DNA from: an uncultured Muribaculaceae bacterium
Lineage (GTDB): Bacteria; Bacteroidota; Bacteroidia; Bacteroidales; Muribaculaceae
Direction of reading: 5' to 3'
Assembly (NCBI GenBank): GCA_964517875.1
Contig: CAZFEU010000001.1
Location: forward strand, 22,831 to 86,830
DNA length: 64,000 bases
Made by a program: the position numbers and the translations under genes. Positions 42,559-46,421 of this stretch are shown in pieces (position 1 is the first letter of the stretch; every line of letters starts with the position of its first letter). The notes below the pieces were generated by a model. It had not been told where the DNA came from. It saw only the letters and a list, made by a program, of their open reading frames with translations, and ran no database searches.

Positions 42559-42578
42559 CCAAGATAATTCATATACTA

Positions 42579-42616
42579 CCGGGGAGATAGCTATAGTAGC
42601 TATCTCCCCGGTTTTT
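42579..42616. terminator. Strong stem-loop between the convergent clpB gene and the oxidoreductase operon (intrinsic terminator)
   Basis: Perfect 15-bp stem CCGGGGAGATAGCTA/TAGCTATCTCCCCGG with a 3-nt loop, followed by TTTTT on the plus strand. Confidence 0.7.
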
Positions 42617-42637: not shown

Positions 42638-43606
42638 TTAGACCGTGATTACGATTTTGCCGGCAAGGCTCCTTTGCTCGGCAAGCGTGTGAGCTTCGTC
42701 TATATGCTGCAATGTGTACTTGGCTGCTATGACGGGATGGATATTATGAGCCTCAATAAGTTTCAGCATAGCATCAATTTGCTCTTGTGTTGGATTATTG
42801 CTATAAAAGCCTGTGAGATAAACGCCTGAGGGTATTTCTTTAATAGGGTCAAAATCCTTAAGGGAGAAAACATTACCGAGCAAACCGGTATGACACACTA
42901 TGCCATGAAGAGCGGTGACCCGTAATGATTGTGGTATAGTTGCTGCCCCAATAAGCTCAAGCACTTTGGTTGCTCCATGTGGGTACGCTCTTAAGAATCG
43001 CTTGACAAAATTATCTCCTTCGAGTACCACGCCGTCGGCACCTGCATCCAGCAGTAATTGTACTTTCTTATCGTTGCGTGTCGTTGCGATAACTTTTGCT
43101 CCCATTGCTTTACCAAGCTGAATTGCCGCAAGCCCGACGGTTGAAGTGCCTCCCCTTATCAACAAAGTGTCACCAACGTGTAATTGCAGTGATAATGTCA
43201 GTGAGCCATAAGCTGTATAAAATGTCTCTGGCACAGCAGCAAGTTCGCAGTCGGTAAGGGAGGAGTCAACAGCAAACACATGGCTCTCGGGCAATAATGC
43301 ATATTCAGCATAACTACCATTGAAACTGCGCCCCATGCCACCCATCATCGCAATGACGGTTTGAGAAATTTTAAATTTTGAGTCAGACTTATCCACGATT
43401 TCTCCAACACATTCTATGCCGGGAATGATTGGTGTGTGGATATACGGTCTATCGGCCTCAAACTGGCGCAACAAAACTTCTGAATGATTAATGCCAAAAG
43501 CTTTGATACGCACTAACACCCAGCCTGGTTTAACTTGTGGTATTGGCACATCAGTCAAAGTAAGATCAGAGGCGGCACAACAATGGTTGATTAGTACAGC
43601 TTTCAT
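42638..43606 (-). CDS. Zinc-type alcohol dehydrogenase-like / quinone oxidoreductase (MDR superfamily)
   Basis: Has a GroES-like N-terminus and a Rossmann motif (IRGGTSTVGLAAIQL). The start is set at MKAVLINH (ATG 43606..43604), which forms an ATGA overlap with the stop of the upstream rSAM gene. Confidence 0.8.
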   Translation of the reverse strand: MKAVLINHCCAASDLTLTDVPIPQVKPGWVLVRIKAFGINHSEVLLRQFEADRPYIHTPIIPGIECVGEIVDKSDSKFKISQTVIAMMGGMGRSFNGSYAEYALLPESHVFAVDSSLTDCELAAVPETFYTAYGSLTLSLQLHVGDTLLIRGGTSTVGLAAIQLGKAMGAKVIATTRNDKKVQLLLDAGADGVVLEGDNFVKRFLRAYPHGATKVLELIGAATIPQSLRVTALHGIVCHTGLLGNVFSLKDFDPIKEIPSGVYLTGFYSNNPTQEQIDAMLKLIEAHNIHPVIAAKYTLQHIDEAHTLAEQRSLAGKIVITV

Positions 43607-44622
43607 ATTTCTTTCCAACATTGAGGGTCGGGTGCATAAAACGAGTGGTGATAACCGTATGCCACGGCCGGACATCCGCGACAGAATCTGAGCAACTCGC
43701 ACTTTGCACATTTTTGAAATTTATCAAACTGGCGGTACTCGTTCATCTTTTCACCAGTCCACAAATCGTGAATATCTGTTTTGAAAAGATTGCCTACCAC
43801 GCTATCAAAACGTCGGCAAGCCATTACTTTCCCATCAGGCTGGATGGTGAAGTGGCAATCTCCGCAGTGGCAACCGTCGTAAATAGCATCGGGGTCGGTA
43901 TCATCGGGAATCTTAAAGAGTCCCTTTTCAAAAAGATATAGAGTCCAAAGGTGATCTTTAAGATTGAATATTGTATGAGCATCTTTATGTTGCTCGAATT
44001 TCTTCCAAATTGTATCAAGGAAGTTGCGATAATCAATAGGGGTGATATGGGTTGATTTCTCATCAGATGTCGGGCAATATCGTCCGAACGCAAACACATC
44101 AACACCTTTTTCCACCACCAAGTCAATAATATCAGGAATCTCTTGAATATTAGTACCTGAAACGGTGGTCATTACAGCCACTCGTATACCATTGCGTTTG
44201 AGCACATCAATCTTCTCAACCGTAGTGTCAAACGACCCTTTCTTTCGAATTCCATCGTGAGTGTCGCGCATGCCGTCGATTGAAAGTTGATATTTCTCAC
44301 AGCCGTAATACTTAAGGCGTTGGCACACTTCATCTGTGATATGAAAGGGATTGCCAAGAATGGTAAATGGGATTTTGTGCTCTTTCACTAACTTCAATAT
44401 CTTCCAAAAATCACGATGTAGAATTGGATCACCACCAGTGATATAGAGATATGGAAGCTTATGCATCTTTCTGCACATTTCAACACATTGTTCTATTACC
44501 ATCCGTGCTTTTGACAAGGGCATTTCGATAAGTCTGGGATGTCCCTCAGCGAATATGTAGCAGTGTTCACAGCGTTGGTCGCAACTATCAGTTATATGCC
44601 ATTGAAAAGCGAAATACTCCAT
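43603..44622 (-). CDS. Radical SAM/SPASM-domain peptide-modifying enzyme
   Basis: Has the N-terminal CX3CX2C motif (CDQRCEHC) and a GGDP motif. The C-terminal Cys-rich SPASM-like region is CHCGDCHFTIQPDGKVMAC...CAKCELLRFCRGC...DPQC. It sits directly downstream of a Cys-rich repeat peptide. Confidence 0.85.
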   Translation of the reverse strand: MEYFAFQWHITDSCDQRCEHCYIFAEGHPRLIEMPLSKARMVIEQCVEMCRKMHKLPYLYITGGDPILHRDFWKILKLVKEHKIPFTILGNPFHITDEVCQRLKYYGCEKYQLSIDGMRDTHDGIRKKGSFDTTVEKIDVLKRNGIRVAVMTTVSGTNIQEIPDIIDLVVEKGVDVFAFGRYCPTSDEKSTHITPIDYRNFLDTIWKKFEQHKDAHTIFNLKDHLWTLYLFEKGLFKIPDDTDPDAIYDGCHCGDCHFTIQPDGKVMACRRFDSVVGNLFKTDIHDLWTGEKMNEYRQFDKFQKCAKCELLRFCRGCPAVAYGYHHSFYAPDPQCWKEI

Positions 44623-44654: not shown

Positions 44655-44687
44655 GCTCCAATGCGCCTACTTCAGGAGCATTGGAGC
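44655..44687 (-). terminator. Intercistronic stem-loop between the precursor peptide and the rSAM gene (putative leaky terminator or attenuator)
   Basis: Perfect 10-bp stem GCTCCAATGC/GCATTGGAGC with a 13-nt loop, followed on the minus-strand transcript by UUUCAAUUUU. It lies 32 nt before the maturase ATG. Confidence 0.55.
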
Positions 44688-44706: not shown

Positions 44707-44880
44707 TTATTTCTCACCGGCTCCACATGCCGAACCGCATGCTGCGGGCTTGGGCTCAGGCTTTTCATCGCCAGCACCACAAGCCGAACCACATGCACCC
44801 GCAGGTTTCTCGGTTTCAGCTGAAGCACACAGATAAGCCTGTGCGGTGTGCTTTACAGCACCATTGTTGATACGCTTCAT
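44707..44880 (-). CDS. 57-aa Cys-rich tandem-repeat peptide, putative rSAM substrate (ACGX-repeat-like precursor)
   Basis: Manual translation gives MKRINNGAVKHTAQAYLCASAETEKPAGACGSACGAGDEKPEPKPAACGSACGAGEK, running from ATG to TAA. The two ACGSACGAG copies differ at 5 synonymous and 0 non-synonymous positions. It is below the 60-aa cutoff of the supplied ORF track. Confidence 0.7.
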   Translation of the reverse strand: MKRINNGAVKHTAQAYLCASAETEKPAGACGSACGAGDEKPEPKPAACGSACGAGEK

Positions 44881-44920: not shown

Positions 44921-44928
44921 CAAATGTA
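44921..44928 (-). promoter_or_regulatory. Candidate -7 promoter element (TAcaTTTG on the minus strand) for the peptide-rSAM operon
   Basis: The reverse complement of CAAATGTA matches TAnnTTTG, about 40 nt upstream of the peptide ATG. Confidence 0.35.
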
Positions 44929-45101
44929 GAATATTATTTTTAAGGAATCAAGTAGAGGAAATTTTATCACTTAGTAACCTTTTTCTCGCTTTTGTGTAGC
45001 AACTACATCCTAATTGAATCATTTGTAAAAAAGAATTTTTCCGGGTAGAATTCCAGTGGCTTTTGAGCGACTCTATATTTGCCTAACCATTGAAATTGGT
45101 A

Positions 45102-45130: not shown

Positions 45131-45517
45131 ATGAGAAGAAAAGAACAGCTTAATTCCATTATAGAGATCTGTCCGGTGCGCAATGTGGTAGCACGTTTTG
45201 GCAACAAATGGGCACTGTTGGTGCTCCTTGTAATAAGTGAAAACGAGCCTATTCGATACAATGAGCTCGGACGCAAAATCCCTGACATATCATCACGTGT
45301 GCTCTCGGGGACTTTACGTACCCTCGAGGCCGATGGTCTGGTAAGTAGAAAACTTTACAATGAGGTGCCGGCAAGAGTAGAGTATTCTCTCACTGAAATA
45401 GGACATTCACTTATCCCCATAATCATGCAATTGACCGAGTGGGCACAGAACAATATGAAAACCATAATTGCACACCGAAAGAATAGTGAAATCGATGATA
45501 TGTCAGATAAATCCTGA
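45131..45517 (+). CDS. HxlR-family winged-helix transcriptional regulator
   Basis: CPVRNVVARFGNKWALLVLL...RYNEL...ISSRVLSGTLRTLEADGLVSRK.Y.EVPARVEYSLTE is a classic HxlR/MarR-like signature. The start is set at ATG 45131. Confidence 0.85.
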   Translation: MRRKEQLNSIIEICPVRNVVARFGNKWALLVLLVISENEPIRYNELGRKIPDISSRVLSGTLRTLEADGLVSRKLYNEVPARVEYSLTEIGHSLIPIIMQLTEWAQNNMKTIIAHRKNSEIDDMSDKS

Positions 45518-45557: not shown

Positions 45558-46421
45558 TTATTTTTTGTTAGCCGAGCGCCGCATCATGAAGATAGCAGCT
45601 GCGGTGAATAGAAGTGAGAGGATGACTATTGGCAGACTTCCTTCACCTTGAGCGATGTGGTCGATATCGGTTTCAGACGACAATTCGCCATGCGCTGCCA
45701 TCCACGAGGTTATCACCACCAATGAGTTATTAAGCGCATGAAGAATTATAGGGAGCCATAGCGAACCGCTCCACCACATTGAGTAGCCAAAAAATGCTCC
45801 GAGCAATACGCGCGGCACGAACCCATAGAGCTGAAGATGCATTGCGCTAAATATGATGGCCGCTATCCATATCGCCAGGTGAGGATTGATACGAGAGCAT
45901 ATTAGCAGTTTCTGAATGCCCCCACGGAAAAACATTTCTTCAGCTATGCCTGTAAGCACTCCCACTATTAGTACCGAGATAATCAACGAACCAATCGAAG
46001 TGCCACCAAGCATAACTTGGGTTGTAAGACGTGCATCCTCCTCAAGCCGTCTTGCCCATCCCATGCTGTCAGGTAGATTCCATCCGTCGTTCCACTCAAT
46101 CACGGCATTCATAGCCGGTATACTTATCAGTAGCGCCAGTATCGCCCAAAGTGTAGTGACGAATCTCGGTCCATGCATCACTTCAAGCAATTCACCGGGA
46201 TAACGTGTGGTGAGCAGTGCGGTGACAATAGCGGGTAGTATAAACACGAGCACATCTTGTAGCACCGCCATTATGCGTAATGAAGCAACCGTGCCACCAA
46301 TTACGTTTGAAAGAAGCTGTGTGAGCAGTGACGTTACCACAAGCATGAATATCATCAGGCAAAAGAGCATACCCAGTGCAAGTGAGGGCTTTACGGCGGT
46401 GCGATATCGGTTGTAAGTCAT
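45558..46421 (-). CDS. CPBP-family intramembrane glutamic endopeptidase (CAAX protease-like)
   Basis: Multi-TM protein with EEMFFRG, FSAMHL and HALNN motifs. Confidence 0.8.
   Translation of the reverse strand: MTYNRYRTAVKPSLALGMLFCLMIFMLVVTSLLTQLLSNVIGGTVASLRIMAVLQDVLVFILPAIVTALLTTRYPGELLEVMHGPRFVTTLWAILALLISIPAMNAVIEWNDGWNLPDSMGWARRLEEDARLTTQVMLGGTSIGSLIISVLIVGVLTGIAEEMFFRGGIQKLLICSRINPHLAIWIAAIIFSAMHLQLYGFVPRVLLGAFFGYSMWWSGSLWLPIILHALNNSLVVITSWMAAHGELSSETDIDHIAQGEGSLPIVILSLLFTAAAIFMMRRSANKK

Follow-up and report, generated by a model that had tools for sequence, protein, structure and literature searches.

Results

Organisation of the locus

In this study, we analysed an ACGX-type peptide maturation locus in a 64,000-nt stretch of DNA (the window) from an uncultured Muribaculaceae bacterium (GenBank assembly GCA_964517875.1, contig CAZFEU010000001.1, positions 22,831 to 86,830 of the forward strand). 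A first-pass annotation, made from the letters of the sequence, had described a radical SAM/SPASM maturase beside a small cysteine-containing peptide. Beyond that description, we find that the minus strand encodes the maturase, that SbtM and not a thioether synthase is the nearest characterised enzyme, and that an oxidoreductase gene is coupled to it and an HxlR-type regulator belongs to the locus. Regulator, precursor peptide, maturase and oxidoreductase very probably form a four-gene cassette. In the window the order is divergent regulator, operator and promoter, precursor, hairpin, maturase and the ATGA-coupled oxidoreductase of the MDR superfamily. The features are the following, with coordinates counted from the first letter of the window.

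42578..42612, no strand assigned: 16-bp GC-rich terminator hairpin that closes the cassette and is common to the convergent clpB
42638..43606, minus strand: MDR-superfamily oxidoreductase, 322 aa, quinone-oxidoreductase-like (Pfam/NCBIfam, locus comparison)
43603..44622, minus strand: radical SAM/SPASM maturase of the ACGX system, 339 aa (TIGR04340, Pfam, Cys conservation, fold)
44655..44687, minus strand: stem-loop of 14 bp followed by a U-rich tract (-25.3 kcal/mol, z = -3.0)
44707..44880, minus strand: ACGX-repeat precursor peptide, 57 aa (TIGR04341; PF27855 by orthologue annotation)
44921..44928, minus strand: -7 promoter box TACATTTG, 41 nt ahead of the ATG of the peptide gene and in agreement with the Bacteroidetes consensus TAnnTTTG
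44948..44993, minus strand: operator-like element AAAAGCGAGAAAAAGGTTACT-N-...CTTGA, from the comparison of divergent intergenic regions
45131..45517, plus strand (divergent): HxlR/DUF24-family regulator, 128 aa from ATG 45131 (PF01638, 97.8 bits)

For comparison, 80 related loci were taken from species-representative genomes, of which more than 595 match. They stem from Bacteroidales, Treponema, several Clostridia-type metagenome-assembled genomes (MAGs), Neobacillus and one Methanosarcinaceae MAG. Their maturases are 60-83 % identical to the window protein, and homologues in this range bear the name 'ACGX system'. The closest homologues among the matches listed (about 83 % identity) belong to Muribaculaceae, 'Sangeribacter' and Bacteroides-labelled MAGs. 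According to the gene order in the 81 loci, window included, peptide, oxidoreductase and regulator co-occur with the maturase across phyla. No signal peptide, exporter, protease or protein with a RiPP recognition element (RRE; RiPP, ribosomally synthesised and post-translationally modified peptide) is conserved across the compared loci. A CPBP/Rce1-like intramembrane protease encoded beside the regulator (45558-46421) was considered as leader peptidase and rejected, as its conservation does not extend to the other 80 loci.

The maturase is a member of the ACGX family

The best NCBIfam match of the maturase is TIGR04340 ("radical SAM/SPASM domain protein, ACGX system"; model type 'hypoth_equivalog'), with 555.8 bits and an E-value of 3.6e-167 against a curated cut-off of 400 bits. 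The alignment runs end to end, residues 2-339 covering positions 1-341 of the 341 in the profile. Because of this E-value, together with an equivalent upstream peptide in 78 of the 80 related loci, the assignment of the open reading frame (ORF) is far beyond chance, and the protein is almost certainly an ACGX-family peptide maturase, which would act on the cysteines of the repeat peptide encoded beside it. The first-pass annotation had stated that an 'ACGX system' model exists and had proposed a profile search. The model is indeed there, and in this search non-peptide radical SAM families stayed far under their cut-offs. The annotation also knew of no biochemical work on the family, in agreement with our finding no paper on ACGX/TIGR04340, biochemistry included, in the literature searched. 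The family is defined bioinformatically only and carries no attached function; at the family level the window protein adds another member and nothing different.

The ORF, its motifs and its domains (Radical_SAM, 87.4 bits; SPASM, PF13186, 41.8 bits in Pfam) were confirmed as first described. The SAM-cluster motif CX3CX2C is formed by C14, C18 and C21 in CDQRCEHC and is invariant in all 98 relatives aligned. Towards the C-terminus follow CHCGDC (C251/C253/C256), DGKVMAC ending at C269, CAKCELLRFCRGC (C305/C308/C314/C317) and DPQC (C335). Tested against the canonical SPASM pattern for two auxiliary [4Fe-4S] clusters (C-x9-15-G-x4-C ... C-x2-C-x5-C-x2/3-C ... C), the protein yields all seven cysteines, namely C251...G264-x4-C269, C305-x2-C308-x5-C314-x2-C317 and C335. 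Each of the seven is conserved to 97-100 %, and the same range holds for the SAM-cluster and SPASM cysteines taken together. C253 is invariant only inside the family alignment (A1), and C256 is not conserved. The statement that the cysteines suffice for two predicted auxiliary Fe-S clusters stands. Four further cysteines outside these motifs (C50, C100, C108 and C183) are invariant in the ACGX family alignment and merely 9-20 % conserved among wider relatives.

Only 13 residues precede the cluster motif, and the maturase therefore has no N-terminal RRE domain. We looked for a fused reductase or another 'Rosetta stone' domain in the N-terminal extensions that longer relatives carry (about 280-480 aa). 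These extensions contain no Pfam domain, with few exceptions: one methyltransferase fusion and, in two proteins, tandem or partial radical SAM-type matches (Fer4_12, a second radical SAM/SPASM). The AlphaFold2 model of the maturase has a mean predicted local distance difference test score (pLDDT) of 79.8 and a predicted template-modelling score (pTM) of 0.82. The predicted fold matches TigE, SuiB, SkfB, the anaerobic sulfatase maturase anSME (anSMEcpe), CteB and PqqE with TM scores of about 0.62-0.71.

After TIGR04340, the second-best family is SbtM (TIGR04082) with 179.1 bits, compared to 141 for the next family. SbtM holds this rank for all 10 nearest out-group relatives as well (158-217 bits), and for eight of them no third family appears at E <= 1e-40. 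AhbD, NirJ and MftC are the next-best families for the window protein after SbtM. One could think of a cofactor- or tetrapyrrole-type radical SAM enzyme of the AhbD/NirJ kind, or of a small-molecule enzyme, with the peptide as an unmodified metallothionein-like or Fe-S-carrier partner. The profiles of AhbD, NirJ2, NirJ1 and NirJ do give 140.7, 118.9, 104.7 and 99.8 bits, the RRE domain is lacking, and the mean column identity of 74 % in a 14-sequence cross-phylum alignment is unusually high for a RiPP maturase. However, these scores lie far under the cut-offs of 500-650 (AhbD 500; NirJ 515), and no tetrapyrrole genes were found in ACGX neighbourhoods, that is, in the related loci and in four loci reached via the oxidoreductase. 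In addition, a peptide whose leader motif is conserved and keeps a constant spacing to the core occurs in 78 of 80 loci, the hairpin is RiPP-like, and sister enzymes have other Cys-rich peptides with a similar leader as partners. A non-peptide enzyme is therefore highly improbable. The anaerobic sulfatase maturase model TIGR03942 reaches 73 bits against a cut-off of 349, and no conserved sulfatase-like neighbour family emerges in the 81 loci.

Precursor peptide and modification sites

The precursor gene lies upstream of the maturase on the same strand, 84 nt away. Its 57-aa product (MKRINNGAVKHTAQAYLCASAETEKPAGACGSACGAGDEKPEPKPAACGSACGAGEK) contains the A-C-G-S-A-C-G-A-G unit twice. The two core units read ACGSACGAG[D/E]K, a PEPKP spacer stands between them, and the leader carries H-T-A-Q-A-Y-L. 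The peptide scores 35.6 bits with TIGR04341 ("ACGX-repeat peptide"; cut-off 28), and orthologous peptides carry PF27855 (Target_ACGX) in precomputed Pfam annotation. A repeat peptide is encoded directly upstream of the maturase throughout the 78 loci named above. The peptides have a leader motif of the form [ST](F)A[QK]xx[YL] in common, and its part [ST](F)A[QK] is found 8-23 residues ahead of the first Cys in 78 of 79 peptides.

Statistics of the substrate motif were taken from 393 Cys-Gly sites in 76 distinct peptides, which have 2-8 such sites each (median 5) and usually end in ...CGAG[E/D]K. Every repeat Cys is followed by Gly, cysteines lacking it being confined to the leader, and the residue before the Cys is Ala in 89 %. 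Positions +2 and +3 are held by Ala/Ser/Thr and Ala/Gly, respectively. Position +4 is Cys in 46 %, Asp in 33 % and Glu in 16 % (Asp/Glu 49 %), giving a unit C-x3-C-x3-[D/E] in which the first Cys has Cys at +4 and the second has Asp or Glu; in some sub-families Lys or the end of the peptide takes this place.

This spacing bears on thioether formation of the ranthipeptide or sactipeptide type, in which the Cys sulfur would be joined to a nearby carbon, for example the beta or gamma carbon of Asp/Glu at +4 as in the CX3D/E reactions of PapB and QhpD, with a small ring per repeat. Most characterised SPASM enzymes acting on Cys-rich peptides make thioethers, as the first-pass annotation also pointed out, and CteB and SkfB are among the structural neighbours of the maturase. 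However, the scores for thioether synthases (PapB-type ranthipeptide maturase NF047865, 65.9 bits against a cut-off of 340; SkfB, 64 bits; StsB, 60.9 bits) are far under those of SbtM and of the oxidising AhbD/NirJ/MftC group, and SCIFF-maturase matches are rare, even among relatives. Moreover, the first Cys of each pair is followed at +4 by Cys instead of an acceptor carboxylate, Lys at this position or an end in ...CGAK is seen in one sub-family, and the conserved Ala-Cys-Gly tripeptide favours a local reaction with involvement of the backbone. Thioether formation is thus unlikely, although it is the chief competitor of the SbtM-like reading. The caution in the first-pass annotation that the chemistry applied to an A-C-G-S-A-C-G-A-G core cannot be read from sequence was right.

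Several loci extend the range of substrates. Sister radical SAM/SPASM enzymes, 45-50 % identical, are accompanied by peptides in which a similar leader precedes other Cys/Gly-rich cores. In locus L082 (540-728) the peptide has a ...HSVQSVL... leader and the core QCNCGGDCNSECGEGECNDGGCNI, and in L087 (1418-1615) an ...APRSVAEV... leader precedes the core DCGSGCSGGGCSGPGCGSSCGSSCR; in L084 (2-595) a nitroreductase is encoded directly upstream of the sister enzyme. Two of the sister enzymes from these three loci still lie above the TIGR04340 cut-off. Because of these different Cys-rich cores behind similar leaders, the 'ACGX' label covers a broader superfamily of Cys/Gly-rich precursors. The Methanosarcinaceae MAG (L055, 5682-5927) encodes a maturase 63 % identical to the window protein and a peptide that retains the leader motif KRSAQNYI. 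Its core reads ...AAGACSPCA and then meets a stop codon, and another frame goes on with ...KPCACSFSCASGY; this could be a frameshift from long-read assembly or a variant core that is not of the Cys-Gly type. There is no MDR or nitroreductase gene nearby in this locus.

A dedicated oxidoreductase follows the maturase

The ATG of the MDR gene overlaps the TGA stop of the maturase as ATGA at 43603-43606. The same overlap of the next start codon with the maturase stop is seen in 35 of 76 loci, window included. The gene directly 3' of the maturase encodes a zinc-free MDR protein in 45 loci, a nitroreductase of about 192 aa in 17, a PNPOx-like/ferredoxin protein in 8 (usually with an MDR or nitroreductase after it within the cassette) and a sirtuin-like protein in 3. 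In the window MDR the catalytic-zinc His is replaced (GIECVG), and the best PDB match is quinone oxidoreductase 4dup. The MDR proteins form one orthologous group with 45-77 % identity across phyla, and their identity correlates with that of the maturases (r = 0.89). When MDR homologues were picked by similarity alone, all four proved to be encoded by the next gene after an ACGX maturase, and each locus had an HxlR gene upstream. A 357-aa ORF call for the oxidoreductase (42638-43711), which would overlap the maturase by 109 nt, was rejected as an ORF-calling artefact, the conserved start being ATG 43606. Its extra 35 N-terminal residues (...MLERN) are an alternative-frame reading of the conserved maturase C-terminus and recur in other loci.

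Potentially, the modification proceeds by two enzymes: the radical SAM enzyme would, by oxidation or elimination at Cys, produce a thioaldehyde, formylglycine or dehydroalanine, or else a vinyl group by decarboxylation of Asp/Glu as with AhbD or MftC, and the NAD(P)H oxidoreductase would reduce this intermediate or, in the reverse direction, oxidise it further. Possible parallels are the LanJ reductases, which make D-Ala, and the McbC-type FMN dehydrogenases, which oxidise azolines to azoles. The dedicated gene directly 3' of the maturase with its frequent ATGA overlap is consistent with such a pathway. So are the presence of two unrelated folds in one slot, sometimes with the PNPOx-ferredoxin protein between, the lack of the catalytic-zinc His as in ene- and quinone-reductases, the structural similarity of the maturase to anSME and the rank of AhbD, NirJ and MftC after SbtM. 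On the other hand, the cassette nitroreductases have no match to SagB/McbC-type NCBIfam models. Furthermore, HxlR regulators with a quinone reductase or nitroreductase are a common free-standing detoxification module, and the reductase may use a small molecule instead of the peptide. We regard a two-enzyme modification as quite improbable.

Some cassettes carry additional genes. Sirtuin-like proteins after an ACGX maturase are encoded in L041 (7031-8679), L053 (7077-8000), L070 (7024-7878), L057 (8821-9711) and L050 (9394-10305). The carriers are Treponema, Neobacillus, Vallitaleaceae and Bacteroidales, and the proteins have weak matches to NAD-dependent deacylase models. In L041 the gene after the sirtuin-like one encodes a macrodomain 'protein-ADP-ribose hydrolase' (PRK04143, 317 bits; cut-off 272), a combination similar to the SirTM/macrodomain oxidative-stress module. 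A minority of cassettes include a gene for a small cupin (Cupin_2, about 125 aa), between peptide and maturase or after the oxidoreductase (L006, 5217-5849; L015, 3579-3956; L028, 5611-5991; L029, 5621-5998; L048, 1317-1754; L094, 4503-4862). In L046 (7030-8953, Bacteroidales) two genes are inserted between maturase and MDR and break the ATGA coupling; by their sequence, a DNA methyltransferase-like gene and a second ORF, they look like a restriction-modification pair.

Regulator, operator-like element and hairpin

An HxlR-family regulator is present in 54 of the 81 loci and is usually divergent from the peptide gene. The window regulator has a single cysteine, C14 in EICPV, and its best PDB match is B. 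subtilis YybR (4a5m). The models of the redox regulators RrpA and RrpB match it below cut-off.

Comparison of 36 divergent intergenic regions uncovered an operator-like element about 100 nt before the peptide ATG in 32 of them, with the consensus AAAAGCGAnAAAAAGGTTACT-N12-GTAACC and the form GGTTACT-N12-GTAACC in many loci. It abuts a promoter of the Bacteroidetes type consisting of TTG (-33) and TAnnTTTG (-7), the latter being the -7 consensus established for Bacteroides promoters. In the window the element lies directly upstream of, and overlaps, the -33 region of the peptide promoter. An inverted-repeat search in the window's divergent intergenic region alone gave nothing, and the element became visible only on comparing the 36 loci.

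The 84-nt spacer between peptide and maturase contains the stem-loop at 44655..44687. A strong hairpin (shuffle z <= -2.5) is found at the equivalent place in 40 of 44 loci with a 25-200-nt spacer, and distant loci have stems of different sequence. The structure resembles an attenuator or an mRNA-stabilising hairpin; hairpins are common between RiPP precursor and enzyme genes.

Discussion

Taken together, SbtM-like maturation in a regulator-controlled ACGX cassette is our best overall explanation of the locus, with a probability of roughly 55 %. The specific chemistry, oxidation at the Cys beta carbon (C-beta) or thiooxazole formation on Ala-Cys-Gly by analogy with SbtM, is more tentative and falls somewhat short of even odds. 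In this model, the maturase would dock on the leader motif of the precursor, cleave S-adenosylmethionine reductively and abstract a C-beta hydrogen from each Ala-Cys-Gly cysteine. The electron would leave via the two auxiliary clusters, and the oxidised Cys would cyclise onto the carbonyl of the preceding Ala, as in SbtM, giving up to four 5-thiooxazoles in the window peptide. The product probably remains cytoplasmic, since no exporter, protease or signal peptide is conserved. Because the operon is under a regulator of the thiol-sensing HxlR/HypR/YodB type and coupled to quinone-reductase-type enzymes, the product might be a peptide with aromatic thiols, made on exposure to electrophiles or oxidants, by which anaerobes buffer soft metals, electrophiles or oxidants. 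Such a cytoplasmic thiol/metal stress-buffer role, again proposed by analogy, is doubtful.

Several observations speak against SbtM-like maturation. The SbtM score lies well under the family cut-off of 350 bits, and the match covers profile positions 198-504 only; the N-terminal region of about 195 residues of SbtM (from Geobacter, Desulfobacteria) is absent in the window maturase. The AlphaFold2 model is poor in parts of the SPASM region (pLDDT < 50). No selenocysteine variants (in-frame TGA) of the A-C-G motif were seen in the loci examined, whereas the natural SbtM substrate contains selenocysteine. SbtM is self-sufficient in vitro, and the thiooxazole model leaves the tightly coupled reductase unexplained. 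The acidic residue, or next Cys, at +4 of almost every Cys is unnecessary for a thiooxazole, and the conserved acidic residue suits a PapB-like CX3D/E thioether or a reaction of the carboxylate side chain better. Finally, the regulatory link to stress is circumstantial, because the HxlR/quinone-reductase pairing is common as a stand-alone module.

The finding itself is the correct recognition of a member of a named, bioinformatically defined family and is not new in kind. New are the dedicated oxidoreductase, the HxlR-type regulator with its operator-like element, the hairpin between precursor and enzyme, the leader motif and the consistent affinity to SbtM. The analysis turns the label "ACGX system" into a concrete model of a regulator-controlled four-gene cassette with a defined predicted modification (-4 Da per Cys and absorbance near 305 nm, the thiol being kept), a defined rival (a thioether, with -2 Da per Cys and the thiol consumed), a predicted operator and a predicted class of inducer, for a family that is widespread in anaerobes. 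If the thiooxazole and stress-buffer reading is true, a recently recognised class of copper- or stress-protective peptides extends to strict gut anaerobes, and radical SAM thiooxazole chemistry gains a second example. If the thiooxazole reading is wrong, the ACGX system is still an accessible target for new radical SAM chemistry on a very simple substrate.

Comparison with known systems

With the system described by TIGR04340, TIGR04341 and PF27855, the window locus shares a full-length match above cut-off and a cognate repeat peptide encoded just before the maturase gene in the same orientation. Neither of the two TIGR family names reflects the oxidoreductase coupled to the maturase, the HxlR regulator, the operator or the hairpin.

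The thioether-forming enzymes PapB, CteB/SCIFF, SkfB and QhpD have the fold and the cluster complement of the maturase and also act on Cys-rich peptides. The PapB substrate motif is a repeated Cys-x3-Asp/Glu, which the C-x3-[D/E] spacing of ACGX peptides resembles. In contrast, thioether SPASM maturases usually have the N-terminal RRE domain that is absent here, and their substrates lack the invariant flanking Ala and Gly.

By profile score, SbtM is the nearest CHARACTERISED relative of the window protein and of all ten nearest relatives. SbtM holds about three [4Fe-4S] clusters and converts Gly-Cys/Sec-Gly (Sec, selenocysteine) into a 5-thio(seleno)oxazole by C-beta hydrogen abstraction with a loss of 4 Da, keeping a reactive thiol (PMC9204691). 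Both are three-cluster SPASM enzymes whose substrate Cys lies among small residues with Gly after it (GG-U/C-G versus A-C-G). Unlike SbtM, the ACGX system has peptides with 2-8 repeated sites and a coupled oxidoreductase.

On the regulatory side, B. subtilis YybR, which we take to be HypR, the activator of the nitroreductase HypO, has the same Cys at position 14 as the window regulator, and the last gene of the operon likewise encodes a quinone-reductase-like MDR or a nitroreductase. Two cysteines take part in the HypR mechanism (Cys14-Cys49'), whereas the window regulator has one. Regulators of the YodB/QsrR type have nitroreductase or quinone-reductase targets; in ACGX cassettes, unlike in the YybR, YodB and QsrR arrangements, a precursor peptide and a radical SAM enzyme stand between regulator and reductase.

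Finally, copper binding and induction by metal or oxidative stress are known for the 5-thiooxazole peptides that O2-dependent MNIO enzymes produce (PMC12668002; PMC11626156), which makes a putative analogous buffer role in anaerobes plausible. These metallophores (bufferins, fontiphorin, 'captophorins') are likewise ribosomal peptides with several modified cysteines and a link to metal or oxidative stress, and bulbicupramide is modified at a Lys-Cys-Gly site. MNIO systems consist of an O2-dependent DUF692/MNIO enzyme with a partner protein, and bufferins are Sec-exported to the periplasm, whereas the ACGX cassette lacks both an MNIO and a signal peptide and occurs in anaerobes; the likeness is functional speculation only. 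Among the Pfam-annotated genes of the four loci reached via the oxidoreductase there is no DUF692, and the 81 loci have no further conserved neighbour family. We speculate that ACGX cassettes might be an oxygen-independent counterpart of the MNIO 5-thiooxazole metallophores, although we judge this rather unlikely. Here, a HypR-like, thiol-sensing regulator would turn on a cytoplasmic repeat peptide, an SbtM-like enzyme would change its Ala-Cys-Gly cysteines to aromatic thiols, and a dedicated quinone-reductase-type partner would complete the modification or service the product; together they would provide a ribosomally encoded thiol, metal or electrophile buffer. To our knowledge, the low-molecular-weight thiol systems of gut Bacteroidales, clostridia, spirochaetes and some methanogens are poorly defined, and this buffer may be common to all of these groups.

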